A stretch of 64,000 bases of DNA from an uncultured Bifidobacteriaceae bacterium (GCA_964555735.1 CAZKTS010000038.1:6929-70928); one strand, 5' to 3'. Counted from the first letter of the stretch, positions 3,656 through 41,034 are shown. A program made the numbers and translations. The notes: generated by a model from the sequence alone, not told the origin.

Positions 3656-5155
3656 TCAGGCGCCCTCGACCACCTCCGGCCGGCCGTGCTCGACGGCCCA
3701 GCGGGCGCCGAGCTCCTCGTGTGCAGACGGCTCGAGCACCGTGTCCACGAACCACCACTCCGCCTGGACGCGCTCGCGGTCCACGTCGACGACGACGTAG
3801 CCGTTGCTGTCGAGCTCGCACCACTTCCAGTGCGGGAGGACCTCGACGGCCTCGCGCTCCAGCGCGAGCGACCGCTCGTCCCGGCGGGGCCAGCCCATCT
3901 TGTCGTCGATGTTCATCGACGTGAGGCTCGAGGTCACGAACTCGACCGCGACCGGCGCATCACCCGCAATCGTGTCCTCGTGCAGCTCGAGCGCGATCGC
4001 GACGTGCACGTCGCCGCTGAGCACGACGACGTTGCGCATGCCGTGATCGCGCAGGTGCCGGAGCAGGGTGGAGCGCTCGACCGGGTAGCCGTCCCACTGG
4101 TCCGGGTCCGGGCCGACGCCTCCGTCGCCCAGGAGCCGAAGCTCGTCGAGCGCAGGACGGATCGACGCCGGCAGGTGGTCGGACCACGTGTGACCCATCA
4201 CCGATGCGTTGCCGAGCAGCCGCCAGTGCGCGGTCGAGTCGTCGAACGCGCGCAGCAACCACTCCCGCTGCTCGGTCCCGAGCTGGGACCGGTCCGGCTC
4301 GTACATCGCGGGCGGAGGCACCGGTTCGTCTCGGCGGCTCCGCGTGTCGATGAGGAACAGCTCGGCGAGATCGCCGACCTCGACGCTGCGGAACACCCGC
4401 GTCGGGTCGGTGGGATCCGGCCGGCGGTACGGCTGCCACTCCCAGCGCGCGCGAAAGCCCGCAGCCTTCCGATCGGCGAACGCGCCCATCGCCTCGGTGT
4501 GCCACGACGAGCCGTCGCGCCAGGTGCCGTCGGCGAACTCGTGGTCATCCAGGGTCGCGATGACGGGGTGACGCAGATGCAACGCCTGGACGTCCGGGTC
4601 ACACCGGTACTGGGCGTAGCGCCGCCGGTAGTCGTCGAGCGTCACGCATTCGTGGAGCGGATCGAACGGACGCCCGATGTCGGGTGGCTGGGGCGCGCCC
4701 GGGGGCAGCACGTTCGGCGTCTCGTAGATGTAGTCGCCGAGGTGCAGCAGGAAGGCGATGTCGTCGCGCGCCGCGATCCGCGCGTAGGCGTTGAAGAAGC
4801 CGGCGTTGTAGCTGGCGCACGATGCGACCGCGAAACGCACGTGCTCCGCCCCCGTTGCGGGCAGGGTTCGGGTTCGGCCCACCGGCGACGATTCGCCGTT
4901 CGCCTCGAACGCGTAGAAATACGTCGTCGCCGGCTCGAGACCGTCGGCATCGACGTGGACGGTCTGGTCCGCGTCCGGCGCGGAGGTCGTGGAGCCACTC
5001 GCAACGACGTCGCGCATCGATTGGTCGCGCGCCACCCGCCAGGTGACCTCGACCGGCTCGTCCGGGCCGACGGTCAGCCTCGTCCACAGGACCACGCGGT
5101 CCTGGAGCGGATCCCCGCTGGCCACGGAGTGGCGGAACTGGCCGTCGGTCCCCAC
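3656..5155 (-). CDS. phoD: PhoD-like alkaline phosphatase/phosphodiesterase (no recognisable export signal)
   Basis: The real part of track ORF 3656..5878 begins near the GTG at 5155: (V)GTDGQFRHSVASGDPLQDRVVLWTRL...FAVASCASYNAGFFNAY...LHLGDYIYE...LDDHEFADG...VVLSGDVHVA, which are PhoD metallophosphatase motifs. The in-frame region upstream is Arg/Pro-rich shadow with no hydrophobic Tat or Sec segment. Confidence 0.8.
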   Translation of the reverse strand: MGTDGQFRHSVASGDPLQDRVVLWTRLTVGPDEPVEVTWRVARDQSMRDVVASGSTTSAPDADQTVHVDADGLEPATTYFYAFEANGESSPVGRTRTLPATGAEHVRFAVASCASYNAGFFNAYARIAARDDIAFLLHLGDYIYETPNVLPPGAPQPPDIGRPFDPLHECVTLDDYRRRYAQYRCDPDVQALHLRHPVIATLDDHEFADGTWRDGSSWHTEAMGAFADRKAAGFRARWEWQPYRRPDPTDPTRVFRSVEVGDLAELFLIDTRSRRDEPVPPPAMYEPDRSQLGTEQREWLLRAFDDSTAHWRLLGNASVMGHTWSDHLPASIRPALDELRLLGDGGVGPDPDQWDGYPVERSTLLRHLRDHGMRNVVVLSGDVHVAIALELHEDTIAGDAPVAVEFVTSSLTSMNIDDKMGWPRRDERSLALEREAVEVLPHWKWCELDSNGYVVVDVDRERVQAEWWFVDTVLEPSAHEELGARWAVEHGRPEVVEGA

Positions 5156-5260
5156 GCGCGCTCTCCTCGTCGGCGTGCTCGACCGCGGCGCCCGCGATCG
5201 TGCCGGGTACCGTACGTCGCCCTGCCCGCACCGCCTGCCGACCGGGGGACGACGGCGCCG

Positions 5261-6280
5261 ATGCCCACGACCGACGAGACGCTCGCCGACGGCCTGGCGC
5301 GGTGGCTCGCCCGCCACCTCGGTGTCAGCCGCGTCGTCGTGGACGAGCTCGAGCGACCGTCGGCCGGGTACGCAAGCTTCACGCTGCTGTTCCGCGCCCG
5401 AACGGAGGAGGCCACCCCGCGCACGCTCCACCTCGTCCTGCGGATGGGTCCGTCGCCGGCCGGGCTCTTCGCCGACTACGACCTGGTCGCGCAGCACGCC
5501 GCGCAGGGAGCGGCGGCGGCCGCGGGCGTCCCGGTCGCGACACCGATCGTGGAGTCGGACCCGGCGTGGCTCGGTGCGCCGTTCATGCTCATGCCGCGCG
5601 TCGACGGCCACATCCTCGGCGAGGTCACCGTCCTCGACCCCTGGCTGAGCGCCCTCTCGCCCGGCGAGCGGGCCGAGCTCCACGAGCACTTCGTCGCTGC
5701 GCTCGGGCGGATCCATGCGGCCCCCACCGAGATCGCGGCCGCGGGCGGGGTTCCCGTGCGCGACGAGCACGCGGAGTTCACCTACTGGGAGGAGTACCTC
5801 CAGTGGTCGTCCGGAGGTGCGCCGGTGCCGACCATCGCCGGTGCGCTCCGCTGGTGCCGGGAGCACGCGCCGCACCATCGGGAGCCGGGCTCACTCTGCT
5901 GGGGTGACGTTCGCCTGGGCAACGTCGTGTTCGGGGACGACCGGCGCCCCCTCGCGGTCCTCGACTGGGACATGGCGTCCATCGGGGCGCGTGCGCACGA
6001 CGTCGCGTGGTACACGACGCTCACCGCAACCATGACGACGCTGCTCGGCAGGAGCGTCGATGGCTTCCCCGACCGCGACGGCACCATCGCCCAGTACGAG
6101 CAGCTCACCGGGTGCGCGCTGCCCGACCTCGAGTGGTACGAAACGTTCGCGCTCGTGCGCAGCACTGCGATCATGACGCGCATCGGCTACCTCGCGATCG
6201 CCGCAGGAGAACGGCCGACGATGCCGATCGACGACAACCCTCTCCTCGACATCCTCCGAGACCGGACCGGGGCCACGTGA
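5261..6280 (+). CDS. aminoglycoside/choline-kinase-type phosphotransferase (APH family, the type often paired with acyl-CoA dehydrogenases)
   Basis: C-terminal part of track ORF 3449..6280 from ATG 5261: MPTTDETLADGLARWL...LCWGDVRLGNVVFGDDRRPLAVLDWDMASIG, the Brenner/APH catalytic loop motif (HGDxxxxN-like plus DWD). Confidence 0.8.
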   Translation: MPTTDETLADGLARWLARHLGVSRVVVDELERPSAGYASFTLLFRARTEEATPRTLHLVLRMGPSPAGLFADYDLVAQHAAQGAAAAAGVPVATPIVESDPAWLGAPFMLMPRVDGHILGEVTVLDPWLSALSPGERAELHEHFVAALGRIHAAPTEIAAAGGVPVRDEHAEFTYWEEYLQWSSGGAPVPTIAGALRWCREHAPHHREPGSLCWGDVRLGNVVFGDDRRPLAVLDWDMASIGARAHDVAWYTTLTATMTTLLGRSVDGFPDRDGTIAQYEQLTGCALPDLEWYETFALVRSTAIMTRIGYLAIAAGERPTMPIDDNPLLDILRDRTGAT

Positions 6281-29930: not shown

Positions 29931-30222
29931 TTTCACCCTCGTCTCGGTCGTGGGGATGTCCTGATCGACGGTACGGAGGCGGGCGGTCGATGCCATCCGC
30001 CGCGGCGCGCGAAATGCGTTCGGGATCTCGCGCGTCGCGACGTGCCAACGGTCACGGTGACGACGACGGAAAATCCTGGTGAAGCCCGTTTGCCGCGCGC
30101 CCACAAGGGGCATGGCGGCCGAACAGGGTGGCGCGGCGGAGCACACTGAGGCGGGGCGAAACCCGACTCCGCACGCAGCGATTGAACGTCCGACCGCGAA
30201 CGGGAGCAGGTGCCACGTGCCA

Positions 30223-31401
30223 ATGCGGATCGATGCCGCCATGTACGACGTCCCGTCGTCCGCTCGCGGCACGGACGAGGCCGTCGACAGCCTTCGCGCG
30301 GTCAACGAGTTCCTGGGTCGGGTGATCGGAGCGCTGCTCGCCGACCGGGGGCTGCCCGGTGTGGCCGAAGAGCTCGCCGCCGCGCTCGGTCGACCCGTCG
30401 CGCTCTGGGGTGCCGCCGACCAGGTGCTCGCCACGAGCGGTGACCACGCGGCGACCGCGGAGGACCGCACCCCCGAGTGGCGCCGCGTCGCGGTGTGCCA
30501 CGGCACCGATGCGGTGACGATCGGGATCCACGACCCCGACGGCTCGACGACCGACCTCGTCGCACTGGTCCTCGAGCACGCGGCGCAGATCACCGCACTC
30601 GAGCTCTACCGGATCCGCAGCGTCGCCGACACCGAGCTCAAGCTCTGGGGCGACCTCAGCCGCGCCCTGCTCGGCCCGGACGATCCCGAGCGGGTGGGGA
30701 TGCTCGCGGCGTCACTGGGCTACGACCTCGACCGCCGGCGCCGAGTCATCGTCACCGAGCCCCGGGTCTCGGACCAGGAGCTGCAGCAGCTCCACGGCCA
30801 AGTGCGCGCGCTCGACACGCAGGCCATGGCAACCCGCCACGACGAGCACCCCGTGCTCATCGTCACCGCCGACTGCGACCCGCTCGCCCTGCAGCGTCTG
30901 ATCGAGTCGCGCGACACCACCCTCTGCCTGGGCGCCAGCAGCCCGACGTCGTCAGAGCGCGGGCTGAGCGCACCACTGCGTGAGGCCCATCTCGCCCTGC
31001 GCGTGAACACCACGTTCGGGGGCGCGAACGTGCTGCCCTTCGAGGACCTCGGCCTCTACCAGCTGTTCGCACACGCCGACCCGATCGACCTCGAAGCGCA
31101 CGCGGCGCAATGGCTCCAGCCCGTCCTGGACCACGACCGCGCGCGCAACGGCGAGCTGCTCCAGACGCTCACCGAGTACCTGGAGCGCGGCGGCGCGGTC
31201 GAGGCGACGGCCCAGGCGCTGTTCATCCACCGGAGCACGCTCAGCTACCGGCTGCGCCGCATCGAGTCCTTGCTGGGTCGGGACCTCGCGAACGTCGACA
31301 CTCGCTTCAACCTCCAGCTGGCCACGCGGGCGCTCGTAGCGGCGGCCTCCATGCGCAGCGCCGTCGACGACGCGTCGGAGACCGGAGCGTCGATACGCTG
31401 A
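30223..31401 (+). CDS. PucR/CdaR-family transcriptional regulator
   Basis: The C-terminus LLQTLTEYLERGGAVEATAQALFIHRSTLSYRLRRIESLLGRDL is the PucR C-terminal HTH. The start is uncertain (ATG 30223, GTG 30217 or upstream). Divergent from the polysaccharide operon. Confidence 0.8.
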   Translation: MRIDAAMYDVPSSARGTDEAVDSLRAVNEFLGRVIGALLADRGLPGVAEELAAALGRPVALWGAADQVLATSGDHAATAEDRTPEWRRVAVCHGTDAVTIGIHDPDGSTTDLVALVLEHAAQITALELYRIRSVADTELKLWGDLSRALLGPDDPERVGMLAASLGYDLDRRRRVIVTEPRVSDQELQQLHGQVRALDTQAMATRHDEHPVLIVTADCDPLALQRLIESRDTTLCLGASSPTSSERGLSAPLREAHLALRVNTTFGGANVLPFEDLGLYQLFAHADPIDLEAHAAQWLQPVLDHDRARNGELLQTLTEYLERGGAVEATAQALFIHRSTLSYRLRRIESLLGRDLANVDTRFNLQLATRALVAAASMRSAVDDASETGASIR

Positions 31402-31405
31402 GGCC

Positions 31406-32215
31406 ATGGCGCCGGAGACCGATGCGGAGCTCACGTTCAAGGATCCGCAGAAGCGCCGATCGGTCACCTTCACCGTCTTGCCGATGACGAAGCTCGACGT
31501 CATCACGCACCAGCGCAAGCCCAGCGACACGCACGTCGGCAAGATCGTCGATTCGATCGAGCGCGTCGGCTTCGTCGCCCCGCTCGTCGTCGTGCGCAGC
31601 GAGGCCGACGATGACGCCTACCTCGTGATCGACGGCCAGCACCGCTTCCTCGCTGCGCAGCAGCTCGGCCTCAAGCGACTCCCGGCGGTGATCGTGCCCG
31701 GCGACACCGCGCGCCGGATGCTCACGCTCAACGTGGAGAAAGAGCCCAACATCCGCGAGCGGTCATCGGTGGCCCTCTCCGTCTACCGGGAGCTGGTGGA
31801 GCGTCGGCCGACGATGAGCGAGGACGACCCCGAGGTCGCGGACTCGGTCCACCACGCCCACTACGTGACCCTCGGTCTCGCGTACGCGGCGTACGGCCGC
31901 CTCGCGGGCAGCCAGTACGAGTCGATCCTCAAGAAGTGCGACGGCTACCTCGACCAACCGCTCGTCGAGTGCCTTCCCGTGCGCGAGGCGCGCGCCGAGA
32001 AGCTCGTCGAAGCCCACCGCCTCGTGCGATCGATCACGGATCAGCTCAAGGAGATGGGCGCCTGGCACGAGTTCGTCGGAGCCCAGATCGTCGCCGCGGC
32101 GAACCCGCTCCGGCGCGCCCGCAAGCAGCATTCGTTCGACGAGACCTTCGACAAGATGCTCACCAAGCTCCGCGCCCTCGATGAGCACCCCGAGAAGCTA
32201 CGGAGCAGCGACTGA
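31406..32215 (+). CDS. ParB/Srx-fold N-terminal domain protein with a DGQHR motif (DndB/ParB-like)
   Basis: 269 aa starting 4 nt after the regulator stop. ...VGKIVDSIERVGFVAPLVVVR...YLVIDGQHRFLAAQQLGLKRLPAVIV... Confidence 0.75.
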   Translation: MAPETDAELTFKDPQKRRSVTFTVLPMTKLDVITHQRKPSDTHVGKIVDSIERVGFVAPLVVVRSEADDDAYLVIDGQHRFLAAQQLGLKRLPAVIVPGDTARRMLTLNVEKEPNIRERSSVALSVYRELVERRPTMSEDDPEVADSVHHAHYVTLGLAYAAYGRLAGSQYESILKKCDGYLDQPLVECLPVREARAEKLVEAHRLVRSITDQLKEMGAWHEFVGAQIVAAANPLRRARKQHSFDETFDKMLTKLRALDEHPEKLRSSD

Positions 32216-33082: not shown

Positions 33083-33252
33083 GAGGACGGAAGATCTCGC
33101 ACCGAGTGAAGCCGCACGGCAAAGCACCGTAAGAAGTCGTGAAGGAGAGCGTCCGACTCTTACGCCGTCCTTACCCTCGCCGGGCTCGGCGGCCGACGAC
33201 CGCGGCCGATCTGCGACACTCGCGGCATGCCGTGCGACGCGCGTCGGTCCCG

Positions 33253-33927
33253 ATGACGCGCGTGCTGGTCGCCGAGGACGATCCGTCCGCGCTCGAGTCG
33301 GTCACGCGCGCACTGGAGCTCGAGGGGTACGACGCCGAAGGTGTCGGGAATGGTGCCGAAGCGCTCCGGGTCGTCGCCGACGCCCCCGTCGATCTGCTCG
33401 TCCTCGACCTGATGATGCCGGTCATCGACGGCCTGACGGTCTGTCGACGCCTGCGAGCGGCGGGAGACCGCACGCCGGTCCTGATGATGACCGCGCGCAC
33501 TGAGCTCTCGGACCGGGTGTCCGGGCTCGACGCCGGCGCGGACGATTACCTCCCGAAGCCCTTCGCGCTCGACGAGCTGCTCGCCCGGATCCGGGCGCTC
33601 CTCCGCCGGGCCAGCTACGACCACGAGCACCGCCCGCTCGAGTTCGACGACCTGAAGATCGACGAGGCATCGCGGCGCGTTTGGAGGGGCGAGCGCGAGG
33701 TCGAGCTCACCAAGACGGAGTTCGACCTGCTCCAGCTGCTCACCCGCAACGCCGGCATCGTGCTGTCGCACACCACGATCTACGAACGGATCTGGGGCTT
33801 CGACTTCGGCGCCGACTCCAACTCGCTCCCCGTCTACATCGGCTACCTCCGGCGCAAGCTCGAAGCGGATGGGGAAGCGCGCCTCATCCAGACCGTCCGC
33901 GCGGTCGGCTACACGGTGCGCCGGTGA
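33253..33927 (+). CDS. OmpR-family response regulator
   Basis: MTRVLVAEDDPSALESV...DLLVLDLMMPVIDG... receiver domain, plus a winged-helix C-terminus ...LTKTEFDLLQLL...VRAVGYTVRR. Confidence 0.9.
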   Translation: MTRVLVAEDDPSALESVTRALELEGYDAEGVGNGAEALRVVADAPVDLLVLDLMMPVIDGLTVCRRLRAAGDRTPVLMMTARTELSDRVSGLDAGADDYLPKPFALDELLARIRALLRRASYDHEHRPLEFDDLKIDEASRRVWRGEREVELTKTEFDLLQLLTRNAGIVLSHTTIYERIWGFDFGADSNSLPVYIGYLRRKLEADGEARLIQTVRAVGYTVRR

Positions 33928-35327
33928 CGAGCCTCCGCCTGCGCCTGGCGATCGGCCTCGCGCTGCTCGCCGCACTGTCGGTCGTGGCCGTCGCCACCAG
34001 CAACTACCTCCAGACGTCGGACCGCCTCCACGCCCAGGTCGACGCGACACTGCGCTCCGACACCCGGCCGCTGGCGGGCGGCGAGGGCTCGTCGACCGCG
34101 TTCGTCGCGGCCGTGTTCTGCCAACAGATCCGCGATGGCGAGGGAGCGGTGGCGGGCTACACCGCGAAGATCACCTCGCAGCTCGGCACCTCGGTGCAAT
34201 GCTTGAACGCCGATGGCGCCGTGAGCGCCTCCATCGGCCGGGCCGATCTGCCTGCGCCGGAGGACGCGGCCGGGTCGGTCGGGAGCACCGTGGTGCTCAC
34301 CACCCAGGAGGTCGACGGGCACACCTACCGCGTCGCGTCGTTCGCGGGACCGGAGGGCGGGACGATCCGGATCATCCGCAGCCTCGCGACCACCGAGCGC
34401 GTGCTCGAATCGATCCGCGAACGGGCGCTGATCATCGGGGGAGTGGTCATCCTGCTGGCAGCTGCGCTCGGGTGGCTCATCGCCGGCTTGATCATCCGAC
34501 CGGTGGAGCGGCTCACGACGGTCGCCGAGCGGGTTGCGGCGACGGGTGAGCTCGCAGCTCCCGTGAGCACGAAGCGACGCGACGAGGTCGGACGCCTTGC
34601 GCGCGCGTTCTCGTCGATGCTCACTGCGCTCAACGAGTCGCGAAGCCAGCAGCAGCGTCTCGTGGAGGACGCGAGCCACGAGCTGCGAACGCCGCTCACC
34701 AGCCTGCGGACGAACATCGACACCCTCCGCCGCCACGAGGATCTCGATCTCGAGGTGCGCACCCGGATCCTGGAAGGGCTCGACACCGAGCTCCGGGCCC
34801 TGGGTGCCCTCACCGACGAGCTGGTCGAGCTCACGGTCGGCGCGCGGACCGAAGAGCCCGCGGAGGCGCTCGACCTCGAGCTGCTCGTCCAGCGCGCTGC
34901 GAACCTGGTCGAGCAACGCAGCGGACGGACGATCGATGTCGAGGCCACACCGAGCACCGTGGTCGCCCGGCCGTCGGCGCTGCTCCGCGCGGTGGTGAAC
35001 ATCCTCGACAACGCGGTGAAGTTCAGCCCGCCCTCCACGCCGATCGAGGTGGTGACCGGCGACGGCCGGGTCGAGGTGCGCGACCACGGCCCGGGGATCG
35101 ACGCCGACGACCTGCCGTTCGTCTTCGACCGCTTCTACCGGGCAGTGGGCGCGCGATCGCTTCCCGGCTCCGGGCTCGGCCTGTCGATCGTGCGGACCGT
35201 CGCCGAGGAGAGCGGGGGCTCCGTGCTCGCCGGCAACCACGACGCCGGCGCATTCATCGCGCTGCAGCTCCCGACGGCGGCGGCAACGAGCGACGCAACC
35301 GGAGCGGTGGTGCCCCGGCCGCGGTGA
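33924..35327 (+). CDS. sensor histidine kinase (two TM, HAMP, HisKA, HATPase_c)
   Basis: GTG 33924 overlaps the regulator stop (GTGA). H-box ASHELRTPLTSL, N-box NILDNAVKFSP, G-boxes DHGPGI and GSGLGLSIV. Confidence 0.85.
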   Translation: MTSLRLRLAIGLALLAALSVVAVATSNYLQTSDRLHAQVDATLRSDTRPLAGGEGSSTAFVAAVFCQQIRDGEGAVAGYTAKITSQLGTSVQCLNADGAVSASIGRADLPAPEDAAGSVGSTVVLTTQEVDGHTYRVASFAGPEGGTIRIIRSLATTERVLESIRERALIIGGVVILLAAALGWLIAGLIIRPVERLTTVAERVAATGELAAPVSTKRRDEVGRLARAFSSMLTALNESRSQQQRLVEDASHELRTPLTSLRTNIDTLRRHEDLDLEVRTRILEGLDTELRALGALTDELVELTVGARTEEPAEALDLELLVQRAANLVEQRSGRTIDVEATPSTVVARPSALLRAVVNILDNAVKFSPPSTPIEVVTGDGRVEVRDHGPGIDADDLPFVFDRFYRAVGARSLPGSGLGLSIVRTVAEESGGSVLAGNHDAGAFIALQLPTAAATSDATGAVVPRPR

Positions 35328-36066
35328 GGGCGACGCTCTCGACCAGCTCCTGCACGTACGGGTGCTCCGGCGTCTCCAGCACCCGGCAGGTCGGCCCGGT
35401 CTCGACGACGACACCGTCCTTCATCACCGCGACGCGGCCGGCGAGCCGCCGCGCGACCGCGAGATCGTGGGTGATGAGCACCATGCCGATGCCCGTCGTG
35501 GCACCGAGCCGGAGGAGCAGGTCGATCACTTGCGTCGTGGTCGTCGCGTCCAGGCTCGACGTGGGCTCGTCGAGCACCACGAACCGCGGCTCGAGGACGA
35601 GCGCACGTGCGAGGACCGCGCGGGCGAGCTGACCGCCGCTGCACGCGGCGGGACGCCGGTCGAGCAGCGACGGATCGAGCGCGACCGCTTCGAGGACCGG
35701 CTCGACCCGCGCCGCCACCGCGTCATCGCCGCGGCCGAGCCCGTGCACGCGAAGCGCCTGCGCGAGGGCGCGGCCGACCGAACGGCGCCGGTTGAGCGCG
35801 GTGCGTGGGTTCTGGGTCACGAGCTGCACGAGTCGCTGGTCGTGCCGCGTGCGCCGCGGCGGCAGCGTCCGCTCGTCGATCCGGACCTCGCCGGCGGTCG
35901 GGGCGGTCACCCCGGCGAGCATCCGACCAACCGTCGACTTCCCGGCACCCGACTCCCCCACGAGCGCGACGATCTCGCCGTCGTCGACCACGAGGTCGAA
36001 CGCGTCGACCGCGGCGCGGCGCTGCGCGTCGTAGCGCTTGACCAGGCCGCACGCTTCGAGCGTCAT
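35254..36066 (-). CDS. Dpp/Opp-type ABC transporter ATP-binding protein (DppF-like)
   Basis: From ATG 36066 (ATGA overlap): Walker A GESGAGKST, signature CSGGQLARAVLARAL, Walker [13 protein letters not shown]. Confidence 0.85.
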   Translation of the reverse strand: MTLEACGLVKRYDAQRRAAVDAFDLVVDDGEIVALVGESGAGKSTVGRMLAGVTAPTAGEVRIDERTLPPRRTRHDQRLVQLVTQNPRTALNRRRSVGRALAQALRVHGLGRGDDAVAARVEPVLEAVALDPSLLDRRPAACSGGQLARAVLARALVLEPRFVVLDEPTSSLDATTTTQVIDLLLRLGATTGIGMVLITHDLAVARRLAGRVAVMKDGVVVETGPTCRVLETPEHPYVQELVESVALTAAGAPPLRLRRSLPPPSGAAAR

Positions 36067-36848
36067 GCCGACGCGAGCAGCTGCTGGGTCTGCTCGTGGC
36101 TCGGGGCTGCGAAGAGCTCGTCGACCGGCGCGCACTCGACGATCCGGCCCTCGTGCATGACCGCGACACGGTCGCAGATCTGGGCGACGACGCCGAGGTC
36201 GTGCGACACGAACAGGATCGACAGCCCGAGGCGCGCCCGCACGTCGAGGAGCTCGCGCAGCACCTGCACCCGAACCGTCGCGTCCAGGGAGCTGGTGGGT
36301 TCGTCGGCCACCAGCAGGGTCGGACGGTGCGCGAACGCGGCGATCGCCACCACGAGCCGCTGCAGCTCGCCGCCCGAGAACCGGTCCGGGAGCTCGTCGA
36401 GGCGCTCGAGCACGGGCCCGAGACCGATCGCCCCGAGCGCCTCCACCAGCTCGGAACCGCCGAGGTCATCACCCAGGTACCACCGGAGCTGACGGCCGAT
36501 CGGCACCGTCGGGGTGAGCGCGGCCATCGGGTGCTGCGGGACGAGCGCGACGCGTCGACCCCGGACGCGCCGCATGTCCCGTTCGCCGAGCGCGGCGAGG
36601 TCGATCCCGTCGAGCCGCAGCTCGTCGGCGCGGAACGTCGCCGAGCGCGGCAGCAGACGGAGCAACGCGGAGCACACGCTCGACTTGCCGCTGCCGGACT
36701 CACCCACCAGGCCGAAGATCTCGCCCCGACCGACATCGAACGACACGTCGCGCACCGCGGGCACGACCGCGTCACGCCGGCCGTAGGTCACGTCCAGCCC
36801 GGCGACGCGCAGCGTCGGCGGCGTGAGCGACGCGTCCGCGAGCGTCAT
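36063..36848 (-). CDS. Dpp/Opp-type ABC transporter ATP-binding protein (DppD-like)
   Basis: Walker [10 protein letters not shown], signature [12 protein letters not shown], Walker [13 protein letters not shown]. Confidence 0.85.
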
Positions 36849-38401
36849 TCGAACGCGAGGCGCTGTGGCGCGAGCCGACTGATGCGGAGCTGCTGGCGGT
36901 CGAGCGGGCTGAGCTCGGCGCGCTGTGCGAGCGCGAGCTTCGGGTACACGGGCGGGAAGATGACCGCGTCCTCAGCGAGACGCCGGTTGAGCCGGCGCAG
37001 CGCCTCCACGCGCTCGCCGTCGTCGGACGTCTCCCAGATCGTGTCGACGAGCGCGTCCACCTCGTCGTCCTGGTACCCGCAGGCGAGCACGTTGGTGGAG
37101 CTGGCCGGTGCGATGACCAGGTAGTTGGCCGGGCCGGACGTGAAGCCGCTCTGGAACGTGTTCATCAGCATCTCGAACTCGCGCGAGAGCCACTTGTTCG
37201 ACCACGGCCCACCGGCGAGCTGCTCGATGGTGACGTCGAGCCCGGCCTCCGCCCATCCTGCCGCCAGGACCTGCGCGATGTCCTTCGCGGTCTGGCTCGT
37301 GCCGATCGTCACCGTGAACGACCGCTGCGACGTCTTCGCCTTCCGCAGAAGCCGCTTCGCGCGGTCGACGTCGGGCTCGGCCCGGTACACCGACACGCCG
37401 GGATCCCACCCGAGCTCCGCCGGGCCGATCGGACCCTGCCCGATCGTTCCCTTGCCGCCGTACACGAGCCGCAGCACACCGGCGCGATCCATCGAGTGCG
37501 CGACCGCGCGCCGGAACGCGATGTCGTCGAACGGCGGCTTCCACAAGTTGACGTAGGTCAGGACGTCGAGCGGTGCGTCCGCGAGCACGAGGTCGACGCC
37601 GTCGGCCGACTCGGCGGCGCTGAGGTTCTGGGCCGCCACGGACGTGATCAGGTCGACCTTGCCCTGTCGCAGGCTCACGAGCCGCGTGGTCGCGTCGGTG
37701 AACAGCGTGTACTGGATCCCGCCGAACGAACCCGGTGTGCCGTGATACTCGGCGAAGCGCGACATCGTGAAGCGCTGCCCGGGCACGTACTCATCGAGCA
37801 CGTACGGACCCGTGCCCATCATGGTGTCGCGCCGCTTGACGAAGTCGCGGTGCGTGATCGGCAGGTTGGTGAGGTGTGACCGCAGCAGGCCGTACGGCCG
37901 CGTGAGGAAGATCCGCACCGTCGCGTCGTCCGGAGCGTCGAAGCGGTGCACGTAGCCGACCATGTAGGTGATCCACTCACTGCCCGCTGAGAGGTCGAGC
38001 ATGTGGGCGAGCGTCGCGACGACGTCGGCGGCCTGCAGCGGGTCACCGTTGTGCCAGGTGATGTCGCGACGGATCGGGATGGTCCAGACCCGGCCGTCCG
38101 CGGAGACCTCGGGCTCGCCGGAGGCGAGGAGCGGCACCGAGCGCAGCTCGTCGTCGTAGGTGTAGAGGCTCTCCATCACCGGCTCGGCGATCCAGCGCGT
38201 GACCTCGGACCCCGAGTCGAGCGGGTTGATGTTGCTCGGCATCGCGGCGACGCCGATCTGGAGGACGCCGTCGCGCGTCCGCTCGTCGACGCGCGCCGAC
38301 GAGCTGCTCGATCCGCACGCGGCGAGGAACGCCGACGACCCACCGACGGTCAGGGCGCTCAGCGCGAGGAAGCGGCGCCGACTCAGCTCGTGCTCGCTCA
38401 T
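36845..38401 (-). CDS. family-5 (DppA/OppA/NikA-type) substrate-binding lipoprotein with Tat signal
   Basis: From ATG 38401 (ATGA overlap): MSEHELSRRRFLALSALTVGGSSAFLAAC-GSSSS (twin-Arg plus lipobox). The body is typical SBP_bac_5. The upstream 283 codons of track ORF 36845..39250 are shadow. Confidence 0.85.
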   Translation of the reverse strand: MSEHELSRRRFLALSALTVGGSSAFLAACGSSSSSARVDERTRDGVLQIGVAAMPSNINPLDSGSEVTRWIAEPVMESLYTYDDELRSVPLLASGEPEVSADGRVWTIPIRRDITWHNGDPLQAADVVATLAHMLDLSAGSEWITYMVGYVHRFDAPDDATVRIFLTRPYGLLRSHLTNLPITHRDFVKRRDTMMGTGPYVLDEYVPGQRFTMSRFAEYHGTPGSFGGIQYTLFTDATTRLVSLRQGKVDLITSVAAQNLSAAESADGVDLVLADAPLDVLTYVNLWKPPFDDIAFRRAVAHSMDRAGVLRLVYGGKGTIGQGPIGPAELGWDPGVSVYRAEPDVDRAKRLLRKAKTSQRSFTVTIGTSQTAKDIAQVLAAGWAEAGLDVTIEQLAGGPWSNKWLSREFEMLMNTFQSGFTSGPANYLVIAPASSTNVLACGYQDDEVDALVDTIWETSDDGERVEALRRLNRRLAEDAVIFPPVYPKLALAQRAELSPLDRQQLRISRLAPQRLAFE

Positions 38402-39273
38402 CCGACCTCTCCTCCTTGGCGGGCGCCCACACGGGCACCGTCGGACCCGACCAGCGAGTCGTTGAGCGAGTCGCCCAGCAGGTTGCAGGCGAGGATCCCG
38501 AGCACGAGCACCGTGCCCGGCAACGCGGCGTACCACCAGAAGCCGTCGATGATCTGCGCGCCGGCGTCGGCCACGAGGTTCCCGAGCGTCGCCTGCGGCG
38601 GTGCCACCCCGAGCCCCAGGAAGCTGAGGCCGCCCTCGGCGAAGATCGCGATCGCCATCGCCAGCAGTGCCTGCACGAGCACCACCGGCGCGATGTTCAC
38701 GGCAACGTCGCGACCGAGGATCTCGCGTGGCGGCACACCGACCGCGCGCAGCGCGAGCACGTAGTCCTGGTGCAGCTCGGTGAGCGCAGCGGCGCGGACG
38801 ACGCGGGTGAAGAACGGGAGGAACCCGATCGCCAGGCAGAAGGCGATGCGGACCTCGGTGCTGATCGAGAACGGCCCGAGCTCCGTCGTCCCCGACCCCA
38901 TGATGCTGAGCAGGAAGATGACGAGCACGAAGGTCGGGAGCGCCTGGGCCGTCTCGATCGTGCGCATGATGAGGCCGTCGGTGCGGCGACCGGCGCGCCA
39001 CGCGGCCGCGAGACCCAACGGTGCCGCGACGGCCAGCGAGAGCAGGATCGCCGCCGAGCTCACGAGCATCGAGAGCCATGCCGCGTCCGCCGTACGCGCG
39101 AGCAGGTCCCGGCCGAGGTGGTCGGTGCCGAACGGGTGCGCCCATGACGGCGACTCCGGCCCACGGGCGACGATCGCGGTCGGGTCGCCGTGGAGCTGCC
39201 CCACCGTGGCGACGAGCACGAACAGCACCGCGCACACGATCCCGAGCCACGTGACCACCCCGCTCCGTTTCAC
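38398..39273 (-). CDS. Dpp/Opp-type ABC permease (DppC-like)
   Basis: 291 aa with multiple TM segments and an EAA-like loop ...ALRAVGVPPREILGRDVAVN... GTGA overlap with the upstream gene. Confidence 0.85.
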   Translation of the reverse strand: MKRSGVVTWLGIVCAVLFVLVATVGQLHGDPTAIVARGPESPSWAHPFGTDHLGRDLLARTADAAWLSMLVSSAAILLSLAVAAPLGLAAAWRAGRRTDGLIMRTIETAQALPTFVLVIFLLSIMGSGTTELGPFSISTEVRIAFCLAIGFLPFFTRVVRAAALTELHQDYVLALRAVGVPPREILGRDVAVNIAPVVLVQALLAMAIAIFAEGGLSFLGLGVAPPQATLGNLVADAGAQIIDGFWWYAALPGTVLVLGILACNLLGDSLNDSLVGSDGARVGARQGGEVG

Positions 39274-40244
39274 GCGAACGCCTCTGTGGTCGTGACCCGA
39301 CGGGTGCGCGGGTCCACGAGCGCGCTCACGACGTCGATGACGAGGTTGAGGACCAGGAAGATCGTCGCGGTGACGACCGTCGCCCCCAGCGCGAGCGGGT
39401 AGTCACGCCGCACGAACGCGGTGACCATCAGCTGGCCGAGCCCGGGGATCTGGAAGACGTTCTCGATGAGGATCGTCCCGGACACCAGGCCGCCGAGCAG
39501 CACCCCCATCACCGCGAGGGTCGGCGTGAGCGCGTTGCGGAGCGCGATCCTCCGCACGAGGGCGCGCTCGGGCATCCCCATCGCGCGGGCGAACGTGACG
39601 TCGTCGTAGGACAGGACGTCGAGCAGGGACGCGCGGATCGAGCGCGCCACCATCGCCAGCACCGCGAGGCCGAGCACGGTCGCCGGGAGGATCATCGCCT
39701 GCAGGTTCGCCAACGGGTCCTCGGCGAAGGTGACGAACCCACCGGCGCCCGGCAGCAGCTCGGGGTTCGAGTCACCCACCAGCACGAGACAGAGGACCGC
39801 GAGCCAGTAGGAGGGGACGGAGATCGCCAGCACGGTGAGCACCCGCGTGCCGCCGTCGAGCCAGCGGCCGTGGCGGAGGGCCGCGAACGTCCCGAGCAGG
39901 AGTCCCGGCACGATCGCGACGAGCGCGGCGAGGAGCCCGAGCTCGAGCGAGACCGGCAGGCGCTCCGCGATCTGGTCGGACACCGACGAGCCGTCGTAGA
40001 ACGACGTCCCGAGGTCGCCCTGCACGAGGTCGCCCACGTACCGCCCGTACTGCACGAGGAGCGGATCGTCGATGCCGAGGCTCTCCTCGACCGCGGCGCG
40101 GGCGCGCGGGTCGGCGACGACCGCCGGCGACATCGAGTCGACCGGGCTGTCGTCGGCCGCGTGGAGCAGCAGGAACATCGCGCTGACGGAGACGAAGAGC
40201 ACGACCACCAGCGCGACCGTGCGGCGGACGACGTACCGAAGCAT
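39270..40244 (-). CDS. Dpp/Opp-type ABC permease (DppB-like)
   Basis: 324 aa. MLRYVVRRTVALVVVLFVSV... is the typical DppB/OppB N-terminus; ...FARAMGMPERALVRRIALRNAL... Confidence 0.85.
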   Translation of the reverse strand: MLRYVVRRTVALVVVLFVSVSAMFLLLHAADDSPVDSMSPAVVADPRARAAVEESLGIDDPLLVQYGRYVGDLVQGDLGTSFYDGSSVSDQIAERLPVSLELGLLAALVAIVPGLLLGTFAALRHGRWLDGGTRVLTVLAISVPSYWLAVLCLVLVGDSNPELLPGAGGFVTFAEDPLANLQAMILPATVLGLAVLAMVARSIRASLLDVLSYDDVTFARAMGMPERALVRRIALRNALTPTLAVMGVLLGGLVSGTILIENVFQIPGLGQLMVTAFVRRDYPLALGATVVTATIFLVLNLVIDVVSALVDPRTRRVTTTEAFA

Positions 40245-40276
40245 GGCGAACTCGGGGAGTCAGCGGAGACCGCGGG

Positions 40277-40936
40277 TCACGCGGTCACGTGCTCGAGGTC
40301 GGCGAGGACCGCGAGGTTGTGGTCGTACGCGAGGAGCATCTCCTCGACGATGCGAGTGCGCTCCTCGTCGTCCCACGGCGCGGCGTCCAGGCGCGCGCGG
40401 TAGTCGGCCTTGAACGCGGTGAGGTCGCCGAGGGCGTCGAAGTCGTAGAACTCGACGCCGACGCCGTCCTCGAGTGCGTACGCGCGCTCGACCGCGCCGC
40501 GGATCAACTGGCCGCCGGAGAGGTCGCCGAGGTAGCGCGTGTAGTGGTGGGCGACGAAGCCGCCCGGCCACGTCCAGCAGACCTCGCGGAGGCGGTCGCA
40601 GTAGGCCTCGGTGGCGGGCGACGCTGCGAACGCTTCCGGCCAGTCGGGACCGGCGAGCGCGTCCAGGTCGCGGCGCAGCGCGTCGCCTCGCTGCAGCTCC
40701 TCCACGACGAACGGCCCCGCCACGGGATCGTCTGCCATCGCCGATGCCGCGTCCTCGAGCACCCCGTAGATCGCGTGGTGCTGGGCCACCATCGCGACGT
40801 AGCTGTCGCGGTCGAGCGTGCCCACGAAGAGCGCACGGAGGAACGGCGCGCCGGCTGCCTCCTCGTGGCGATCCCACGTAGCCGCTCGGATCTGCTCGGC
40901 GAACGACGACGTCCGCGCCCCACCTGCACTGTTCAC
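40277..40936 (-). CDS. hmuO: heme oxygenase (biliverdin-producing, HmuO/HO-1 type)
   Basis: ...FAEQIRAATWDRHEEAAGAPFLRALFVG...HHYTRYLGDLSGGQLI... matches canonical HO motifs. I prefer the GTG at 40936 because GGGAG (40943-40947) lies 6 nt upstream; the track start is the ATG at 40954. Confidence 0.85.
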   Translation of the reverse strand: MNSAGGARTSSFAEQIRAATWDRHEEAAGAPFLRALFVGTLDRDSYVAMVAQHHAIYGVLEDAASAMADDPVAGPFVVEELQRGDALRRDLDALAGPDWPEAFAASPATEAYCDRLREVCWTWPGGFVAHHYTRYLGDLSGGQLIRGAVERAYALEDGVGVEFYDFDALGDLTAFKADYRARLDAAPWDDEERTRIVEEMLLAYDHNLAVLADLEHVTA

Positions 40937-40958
40937 TCGACGCTCCCGGGTCATTCAG

Positions 40959-40977
40959 TTAGGGTCACCTGACCTAA
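40959..40977. promoter_or_regulatory. DtxR/IdeR-type iron box 1
   Basis: TTAGGGTCACCTGACCTAA compared with the consensus TTAGGTTAGSCTAACCTAA: 15/19 by my count, with perfect TTAGG...CCTAA outer arms. It is an AT-rich island in a GC-rich divergent promoter. Confidence 0.6.
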
Positions 40978-40978
40978 C

Positions 40979-40997
40979 TTTGGTGAGGCTAACCCAA
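40979..40997. promoter_or_regulatory. DtxR/IdeR-type iron box 2
   Basis: TTTGGTGAGGCTAACCCAA compared with the consensus TTAGGTTAGSCTAACCTAA: 16/19 by my count. It sits 1 nt after box 1. A TAACTT -10-like hexamer (40975-40980) bridges the two boxes. Confidence 0.6.
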
Positions 40998-41034
40998 GCC
41001 TTGCGACGGCGACAGTCCACCGGGAGGACGCTCC

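Follow-up and report, generated by a model that had tools for sequence, protein, structure and literature searches.

What does an importer of the peptide-transport type carry when its operon opens with a heme oxygenase gene? The question is raised by a locus in a 64-kb stretch of DNA from an uncultured Bifidobacteriaceae bacterium (GCA_964555735.1, CAZKTS010000038.1:6929-70928; about 71% G+C throughout), referred to below as the window. On its minus strand, the heme oxygenase gene hmuO precedes five genes of an ATP-binding cassette (ABC) importer, and genes for two surface proteins with neocarzinostatin-fold (NCS) domains diverge from the same control region. We propose that the locus is an iron-repressed system for heme acquisition and degradation, with heme as the predicted ligand, and put the probability of this reading at about 0.7. 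Heme is favoured because the transporter clade is linked to hmuO in 43/43 loci, in three arrangements and as a monophyletic group, and because NCS, DUF2470, NuoF-like and VIT1 genes cluster with that clade. It is also favoured because the only two IdeR boxes of the window lie upstream, with comparable boxes in relatives; because the substrate-binding protein (SBP) lacks peptide-anchoring and nickel-chelate residues and has clade-specific residues in its ligand loops; and because the importer's family offers precedent for heme import.

Organization of the hmuO operon

Six minus-strand open reading frames (ORFs) run head to tail, all above threshold in a Pfam search. hmuO (40277-40954; PF01126, 176 bits) encodes an HO-1-type heme oxygenase and is separated by 32 nucleotides (nt; 40245-40276) from the gene for permease 1, a DppB/NikB-like protein (39270-40244; BPD_transp_1 and BPD_transp_1_N). 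The DppC/NikC-like permease 2 (38398-39273; also a Pfam match) follows, then an SBP of cluster C, a lipoprotein with a twin-arginine (Tat) export signal that belongs to the hmuO-linked clade described below (36845-38401; SBP_bac_5, 224 bits). The last two genes encode ABC ATPase 1 (36063-36848; 261 amino acids (aa), NikD-length, without the oligo_HPY C-terminal domain) and ABC ATPase 2 (35254-36066; 270 aa, NikE-length, with a sub-threshold oligo_HPY match). The permease genes overlap by GTGA at 39270-39273, and the next three junctions by ATGA at 38398-38401, 36845-36848 and 36063-36066. An earlier note on this DNA had described the six genes, the 32-nt gap, the four 4-nt overlaps and a Tat-lipoprotein family-5 SBP; all can be read in the sequence, the SBP from its twin-arginine motif, lipobox and SBP_bac_5 match.

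The overlaps are no oddity of the window contig, as they recur in most orthologous loci (35/44, 35/45, 25/46 and 30/44 at the four junctions). A strong Shine-Dalgarno sequence, AAGGAGGAG, precedes the SBP start. A scan of 34800-41300 finds no terminator-like or sigma-70-like consensus site. The 32-nt gap, in which a terminator would by the earlier note have counted against a joint operon, likewise holds no such consensus, and a small hairpin over the hmuO stop codon (z = -0.98 against shuffles) lacks a U-tract. Because no terminator-like site is seen and the hairpin is unremarkable, the six genes are probably a tight, co-transcribed unit.

By its profile and motif matches, HmuO is a canonical HO-1-type heme oxygenase, predicted to convert heme to biliverdin, CO and iron. 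It scores 176.2 bits against PF01126 (cut-off 23) over profile positions 2-203 of 204, and matches HO-1 and HmuO chains in the PDB at 1e-30 to 1e-35. The proximal histidine is conserved, with WDRHEEA of the query aligned to KEVHIRA of the HO-1 chain 4mec_A, and the glycine-rich motif of the distal helix (GDLSGGQ type), YTRYLGDLSGGQ, is identical to that of 4mec_A. The true start likely lies at GTG 40936 rather than ATG 40954, because a GGGAG Shine-Dalgarno sequence stands 6 nt upstream of the GTG and none accompanies the ATG, which is 4 nt from an IdeR box. Leaderless expression from ATG 40954 was considered and rejected, as no TANNNT element lies at the right distance. The 225-aa version of HmuO is absent from the protein collection, in which the neighbours' proteins are present.

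At the far end of the operon, the 3' end of the ATPase 2 gene overlaps a convergent histidine-kinase ORF (33681-35327, plus strand) by 74 nt (35254-35327). The tail of ATPase 2 past its conserved domain, AAGAPPLRLRRSLPPPSGAAAR, could be one of the read-through extensions that high-GC ORFs typically show.

Conserved linkage of the transporter to hmuO

A homologue search recovers about 95 cluster representatives at 39% identity or more to the SBP; the next matches fall to 31% and then 27%, and the family is sharply bounded. A scan of one genome per species yields 78 distinct loci, 67 of them of the SBP family, and these were then searched with all window proteins. The SBP is at least 50% identical to that of the window in 49 loci, and in all 43 of those with enough upstream flank hmuO lies within about 4 kb of the transporter. 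These hmuO-linked loci span at least six actinobacterial orders, with members in Acidimicrobiales, Embleya/Yinghuangia/Streptodolium, Nocardioides, Dactylosporangium, Streptosporangiales, Nanopelagicales and Jatrophihabitantaceae. No hmuO occurs within 10 kb of the transporter in a sister clade with 41-45% SBP identity (0/18) or in outgroup PepT loci (0/11). When the SBPs are placed in a neighbour-joining tree rooted on Escherichia coli DppA and NikA, the hmuO-linked clade is recovered in 100/100 bootstraps and the sister clade in 83/100. Four genomes carry both SBP paralogues, and hmuO stands only beside the hmuO-linked type.

The linkage survives rearrangement, since it is kept across three gene arrangements. 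Most common, with 27 loci from Acidimicrobiia, Embleya, Yinghuangia and Streptodolium, is a same-strand hmuO that immediately precedes the transporter at a distance of 7-231 nt; the window locus also has this arrangement. Five loci (Nocardioides, Dactylosporangium, and Nanopelagicales and Jatrophihabitantaceae metagenome-assembled genomes (MAGs)) have the order hmuO, NuoF-like gene, VIT1, permease. Eleven Streptosporangiales loci have hmuO and a NuoF-like gene divergent from the transporter. Because nothing beyond the cluster is syntenic with the window in related loci, the cluster behaves as a discrete module. The window SBP pairs with that of an Acidimicrobiales MAG in the tree, and the gene layout matches Acidimicrobiia MAGs. 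The earlier note had set the operon against the heme loci of Corynebacteriales, a framing that does not fit a family in which 0/67 loci come from that order.

The NuoF-like protein of the second and third arrangements carries Complex1_51K and NADH_4Fe-4S domains (flavin mononucleotide/4Fe-4S) and could, from this domain content, be a candidate electron donor to heme oxygenase. The VIT1 iron transporter has a ferritin-like N-terminal extension in some loci. NuoF-like and/or VIT1 genes occur, by locus number in the scan and position within the locus, in L026 (5301-7937), L033 (5103-7908), L035 (5876-7099 and 14152-14931), L002, L022, L025 and L031; neither gene is in the window. In the Microtetraspora locus L035, a second, divergent heme-oxygenase paralogue (4862-5572, plus strand) lies about 1.5 kb from the hmuO/NuoF-like pair.

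Further genes accompany the transporter in both clades. In sister-clade loci (L046-L060, L064, L065 and L067) it is adjoined by genes for a CN_hydrolase, an AMP-dependent ligase, a DUF4437/ChrR-cupin protein with a His-rich C-terminal tail and a DUF3598 protein. The AMP ligase, DUF4437 and DUF3598 genes are found next to hmuO-linked transporters as well, namely in Streptosporangiales, Dactylosporangium and one Nanopelagicales MAG (L022, L033, L035-L043, L061 and L062). These common genes may reflect either local duplication or chemically related ligands.

Identity of the transporter

An SBP_bac_5 SBP, two BPD_transp_1 permeases (one with a DppB-type N-terminal domain) and two ABC ATPases, contiguous and overlapping, identify the transporter by domain content as a member of the PepT (peptide/opine/nickel) ABC importer family. 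Heme import has precedent in this family. Mycobacterium tuberculosis depends on its Dpp system to use heme, and the dissociation constant of DppA for heme is about 1.5 uM (PMC6751184). PMC10954201 cites E. coli Dpp, NikA and Haemophilus influenzae OppA as PepT-family heme systems, and DppA, MppA and NikA as heme binders (Letoffe 2006; Shepherd 2007).

The precedent does not extend to orthology. All NCBIfam equivalogs for Dpp, Opp, Nik, Gsi, Sap and Cnt components score far below cut-off, including DppA (53 of 1005 bits), DppB (164 of 590), DppC (118 of 483), DppF (147 of 660), NikA (98 of 393), NikD (200 of 318.7) and NikE (185 of 332.55). The permeases and ATPases are 32-39% identical to both E. 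coli Dpp and E. coli Nik (permease 1 is 35% identical to NikB and 32% to DppB), and for the SBP the identity to DppA and NikA of E. coli is 22-24% (22% to DppA). At 261 and 270 aa, the ATPases compare with 254 and 268 aa for NikD and NikE and with 327 and 334 aa for E. coli DppD and DppF; the oligo_HPY domain is absent from ATPase 1 and sub-threshold in ATPase 2 (20.2 against 27.1). M. tuberculosis DppA is outside the 60 best PDB matches of the SBP, whether by phmmer or by family profile, and the best matches are uncharacterised proteins or binders of cysteine, sialic acid, glutathione, opines, nickel or dipeptides, all equally far. By these comparisons, the transporter stands at equal distance from Dpp and Nik, and it is neither an orthologue of the E. 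coli Dpp system nor, as far as the structure searches tell, of that in M. tuberculosis.

The label "Dpp-type" given earlier is therefore apt for the broad PepT family and fails in its strict sense on equivalog scores, ligand residues and ATPase length. The accompanying argument, that Dpp precedent points to a heme substrate, has to be given up, with no Dpp orthology and an SBP at 22-24% identity: homology to Dpp does not carry it because the system is not close to the known moonlighting heme/peptide Dpp systems. The hint that the note drew from the linkage of hmuO to a dpp-like operon survives in another form, as a heme reading that stands on the 43/43 synteny and not on Dpp orthology.

An ordinary nutritional Dpp/Opp peptide permease, beside hmuO by accident or moonlighting as in E. 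coli, would share PepT family membership, and the Dpp systems known to import heme serve mainly in peptide transport (PMC6751184, PMC10954201). We nevertheless consider it very improbable. DppA Asp408, the anchor of the peptide alpha-amino group, aligns to Phe420, a residue found in all clade members (47/47), and Arg355 is opposite a gap (alignment at about 22% identity, with the motif region conserved; DppA residues in mature numbering). Furthermore, the ATPases lack the C-terminal domain, the equivalog scores reach a small part of their cut-offs, and chance does not account for a linkage to hmuO and NCS proteins that holds across the clade.

A second alternative is an importer of metal chelates (a nickel or cobalt complex, or an iron-metallophore, in the style of Nik or Cnt) that sits beside hmuO only through a shared iron-starvation regulon. 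Its best NCBIfam similarities, to the Nik and Opp2 nickel models and the Cnt opine-metal models, and its NikD/E-sized ATPases point this way, as do the His-rich tails of the DUF4437 proteins that adjoin the transporter in some lineages. Yet the Nik and Cnt models remain far below cut-off (for NikA, the 98 against 393 bits given above), and the Ni-chelate ligands of NikA are not conserved: His416 falls at a variable position, Arg137 is replaced by Ile and Arg97 by Gly. No metallophore biosynthesis genes are found in the window. Co-regulation would not require fusion, yet hmuO stays within about 4 kb in 43/43 loci and three arrangements, and a DUF2470/HugZ-like gene and a candidate heme oxygenase reductase accompany the cluster. 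This alternative is unlikely in our estimate.

Features of the substrate-binding protein

The SBP N-terminus, MSEHELSRRRFLALSALTVGGSSAFLAAC, holds a twin-arginine motif (SRRRFLA) and a lipobox (LAAC) within residues 7-29, and R8, R9 and C29 are invariant in 37 homologues. An AlphaFold2 model (predicted local distance difference test score (pLDDT) 89) has a generic cluster-C fold with 18-22% identity to all structural neighbours. Naming the ligand from the fold was attempted and dropped, since Foldseek places the model equally near dipeptide, sialic-acid, glutathione, opine and nickel binders at that identity.

Three segments contain the residues that at least 95% of the hmuO-linked SBPs share and that the sister clade lacks. 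The first, 55-69, contains P55, D62, G64, E66, T68 and R69; the second, 140-142, contains G140 and E142, in addition to H133, which is Phe in most sister-clade members; the third, 421-427, contains T421, A425, N426 and Y427 and is the loop aligned with the ligand-binding TGDNGDPDNF motif of DppA. Because the clade-specific residues sit in ligand loops, the hmuO-linked and sister clades probably differ in ligand; the residues do not name that ligand.

A putative iron-responsive control region

hmuO and the divergent plus-strand gene are separated by 80 bp that hold two putative IdeR/DtxR-type operators. Measured against the 19-bp palindromic consensus TTAGGTTAGGCTAACCTAA, with a limit of four mismatches, box 1 (TTTGGTGAGGCTAACCCAA; 40979-40997) matches at 16/19 positions with three mismatches, and box 2 (40959-40977), one base away, matches at 15/19 with four. 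Box 1 is the single match with three or fewer mismatches in 64 kb, and none arises in 100 shuffles. At the four-mismatch limit, the two boxes are the only matches in the window; nine of ten shuffles give none and one gives a single box. The operon had been called iron-boxed, and two unique IdeR-type boxes directly upstream, with about zero expected by chance, bear this out. IdeR binding at 40959-40997 is predicted from these matches.

IdeR-like boxes with a GTTAGGCTACC core also precede hmuO in loci of Yinghuangia, Streptodolium and Acidimicrobiia. Embleya loci have an IdeR-like box farther from hmuO, near the NCS gene, and no IdeR-like box was found in the Streptosporangiales and Nocardioides loci. 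A separate element, CAAGTTGTCGGTAACTTAT, recurs about 205-265 nt upstream of hmuO in six Embleya loci (L005, L008, L010, L013, L014 and L019) and may bind a different regulator.

Divergent neocarzinostatin-fold surface proteins

Both NCS genes, a side of the locus that the earlier note had left aside, diverge from hmuO and lead away from the same IdeR-boxed region. The first (41035-41805, plus strand; PF00960, 34.8 bits) is preceded by a GGGAGGA Shine-Dalgarno sequence and encodes a secreted protein with a signal peptide, one NCS domain, a Pro/Thr/Ala linker and a C-terminal membrane anchor. The second (41862-43688, plus strand; alternative start ATG 41844) encodes a cell-wall protein with a signal peptide, three NCS domains, an extra beta-rich domain, an LAFTG sortase signal, a transmembrane helix and an RRRR tail. 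It scores 66.1 bits against PF00960 over three stretches, where the cut-off is 25 bits.

An AlphaFold2 model of a single NCS domain (pLDDT 84) is matched by Foldseek to the macromomycin, neocarzinostatin, C-1027 and kedarcidin apoproteins with template modelling (TM) scores of 0.75-0.80, and the top 12 PDB matches are all enediyne apoproteins or engineered variants. According to this model, the surface proteins have the seven-stranded immunoglobulin (Ig)-like neocarzinostatin fold. Four cysteines (two disulfides) are conserved in 84-99% of 99 domains. A homologue search with the single-domain protein gave three matches, reflecting low-complexity linkers, and a domain hidden Markov model was instead run on the fetched loci. 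With it, NCS-fold proteins are detected in 44 hmuO-linked loci, whereas the sister-clade and outgroup loci have none.

To our knowledge, neocarzinostatin-fold domains have so far been known only as enediyne antibiotic carriers. A role as an enediyne chromoprotein is not supported here: the two proteins score 56.6 and 70.9 bits against the chromoprotein model NF040680 (cut-off 86), and the 64-kb window contains no polyketide synthase or enediyne biosynthesis genes. No NEAT or HtaA domain is present in any locus protein by Pfam search, and the likeness of the NCS proteins to NEAT and HtaA receptors is functional and architectural only. The NCS-fold surface proteins are candidate heme receptors. 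A literature search, itself incomplete, turned up no paper that links neocarzinostatin-family domains to heme or describes an hmuO-PepT operon. The one sortase substrate for which that search found such a domain mentioned is CwpG, a sortase-E substrate of Actinoplanes (PMC13251363).

A DUF2470 gene lies just past the surface-protein genes (43751-44071, minus strand; 106 aa, Pfam DUF2470, 76 bits). The sole NCBIfam relative of its product is the HugZ N-terminal region (1.9e-8), and a DUF2470 gene stands beside the cluster in about 24 related loci. The window copy is without an IdeR box of its own and is possibly co-transcribed with a PAP2 gene (44136-45044).

A model for heme capture and its alternatives

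In the proposed model, iron scarcity would cause an IdeR/DtxR-family repressor to leave the two operators in the 80-bp region, and both arms would be transcribed. The plus-strand arm would supply a sortase-anchored, three-domain wall protein and a membrane-anchored, one-domain protein, which may capture heme, or take heme from hemoproteins, and pass it inward. The minus-strand arm would yield one translationally coupled mRNA for HmuO, two permeases, the SBP and two ATPases. The lipid-anchored cluster-C SBP would hand heme to the PepT permease, ATP hydrolysis would power import, and cytoplasmic HmuO would open the ring to release biliverdin, CO and iron. In other lineages, the NuoF-like flavoprotein may feed electrons to HmuO and VIT1 may buffer the freed iron. 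The cluster of putative heme surface proteins and PepT importer looks like an undescribed Gram-positive route of heme capture and import.

A different tetrapyrrole (coproporphyrin/coproheme or a bilin) might be imported instead, or heme might be salvaged as a cofactor while HmuO mainly detoxifies the excess. Some carriers of the cluster are aquatic Nanopelagicales-type MAGs, and acI actinobacteria are heme auxotrophs for which dpp-like clusters have been proposed as heme importers (bioRxiv 10.1101/2021.01.11.426183), which would suit salvage. The presence of a VIT1 iron exporter and a DUF2470 protein would fit handling and detoxification, and the accessory genes common with the sister clade hint at chemically related ligands. 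The IdeR operators, on the other hand, argue for induction by iron starvation, and a canonical heme oxygenase at the head of the operon speaks for import of its own substrate, heme b. We judge this alternative improbable, to the same degree as the metal-chelate importer.

Several observations weigh against heme uptake for iron, a reading that rests on sequence and genome context. Many of the 43 loci are congeneric, which leaves about 15 independent lineages. Proteins proven to bind heme resemble the SBP no more closely than do those that bind sialic acid, opines, glutathione or nickel, and the nominally best NCBIfam matches, sub-threshold as they are, belong to nickel models. Cluster-C SBPs have no known heme-binding sequence signature, because no heme-bound structure of one has been solved (PMC10954201). 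The acidic clade-specific pocket residues D62, E66 and E142 are unexpected for a ligand with two propionates and would favour a metal chelate; R69 and H133 are clade-specific as well. Among the 99 NCS domains no conserved His, Tyr or Met is seen, and the idea of a conserved axial-ligand residue was abandoned, as only Cys, Gly and a few structural Val, Phe, Asp and Thr are conserved. IdeR boxes suit any iron-uptake system, and IdeR control would fit a metallophore importer equally. Finally, the occurrence of DUF3598, DUF4437 and AMP-ligase genes beside both the hmuO-linked clade and the hmuO-less sister clade is unexplained.

Flanking genes

Beyond the DUF2470 gene, two divergent genes encode PAP2-family phosphatases (44136-45044, minus strand; 45104-45829, plus strand). 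A plus-strand gene at 45826-46719 overlaps the second by 4 nt and may encode a diacylglycerol/lipid kinase, which its product appears to resemble. These genes at the border of the heme locus appear to be an ordinary lipid-metabolism cluster.

A plus-strand gene pair downstream of the operon (33139-35327), for a response regulator of OmpR type and a HAMP/HisKA histidine kinase, probably has no part in heme sensing. This two-component system was considered as a ChrSA/HrrSA-like heme sensor and rejected, as it is OmpR-type and absent from related loci. Farther away, 30079-32215 (plus strand) encodes a PucR-type regulator (GGDEF_2 and HTH_30) and then a protein with a ParB N-terminal domain, which is unusual outside a partition context. 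Rfam and tRNA scans of the window found nothing.

Implications

A bolder proposal, offered tentatively and held at somewhat short of even odds, is that NCS-fold domains form a third, independently evolved class of Gram-positive surface receptor for heme or hemoproteins, after NEAT and HtaA/CR. They would feed the first dedicated, non-moonlighting, heme-specific cluster-C SBP and PepT importer, widespread in environmental Actinomycetota. The neocarzinostatin fold would then have a function in physiology beyond the transport of antibiotics.

Nearly all that is known of heme acquisition comes from pathogens. If the heme reading is right, heme scavenging is conserved in soil and aquatic actinobacteria (Acidimicrobiia, Nocardioides, Embleya, Streptosporangiales and Nanopelagicales-type MAGs), which would matter for the view of heme as a commodity exchanged between organisms and for the heme auxotrophy of abundant aquatic lineages. 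The known cluster-C heme examples are peptide transporters, in which endogenous peptides compete with heme, one of the reasons for the lack of a heme-bound structure (PMC10954201); an SBP without peptide anchors and tied to hmuO would be a cleaner subject for the study of cluster-C heme recognition. An annotation rule would also follow, by which the clade's "peptide/nickel transport system substrate-binding protein" becomes a predicted heme-binding protein.

Comparison with known systems

One close parallel is the hmu locus of Corynebacterium diphtheriae (HtaA-HmuTUV-HtaB) together with its DtxR-regulated hmuO. Both systems are actinobacterial and DtxR/IdeR-repressed (by prediction in the window), and each joins surface-exposed, membrane-anchored proteins of a heme relay (a presumed one in the window) to a lipoprotein SBP, an ABC importer and HmuO, the HO-1-type enzyme that frees the iron. 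C. diphtheriae uses the FecCD/type II importer HmuTUV with a cluster-A SBP, whereas the window has a PepT type I importer with a cluster-C SBP. The surface proteins carry HtaA/CR domains in the former and NCS-fold domains in the latter. hmuO is unlinked in C. diphtheriae but heads the transporter operon in the window.

M. tuberculosis DppABCD (Rv3666c-Rv3663c) is likewise an actinobacterial PepT importer with a lipoprotein cluster-C SBP and is required for heme utilisation (PMC6751184, PMC10954201). It is a dual-function system that also takes tri- and tetrapeptides, has the gene order A-B-C-D and a fused double ATPase, and is unlinked to a heme oxygenase, the IsdG-type MhuD being used there. 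The window, in contrast, has the order B-C-A-D-F, separate short ATPases and hmuO fused to the operon, and its SBP is not especially similar to the DppA of M. tuberculosis. E. coli DppBCDF (with DppA/MppA) and NikABCDE belong to the same transporter family, with permeases and ATPases 32-39% identical to those of the window. In E. coli, heme transport is a sideline of peptide and nickel systems, whereas in the window the peptide and nickel residues are absent and the context points to a dedicated heme role.

In its logic, the locus resembles the Isd system of Staphylococcus aureus, in which iron-repressed, sortase-anchored, multi-domain receptors deliver heme to a lipoprotein SBP and ABC permease for cytoplasmic degradation. 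The receptor modules of both are Ig-like beta-sandwiches. The window differs in having no NEAT domains, an LAxTG (class E type) sortase signal in place of NPQTN/LPXTG, an HO-1-type oxygenase in place of IsdG/I, and an importer of a different ABC family. With the enediyne apoproteins (neocarzinostatin, macromomycin, C-1027 CagA and kedarcidin), the NCS domains share their fold and two disulfides, and members of that family are known to carry a hydrophobic small molecule in a cleft. The window domains are tandem, anchored to wall or membrane, and linked to hmuO and IdeR boxes; they are not free secreted carriers. By analogy, the architecture of the window appears to parallel the Isd and Hta/Hmu relays, with different parts at every step except HmuO.

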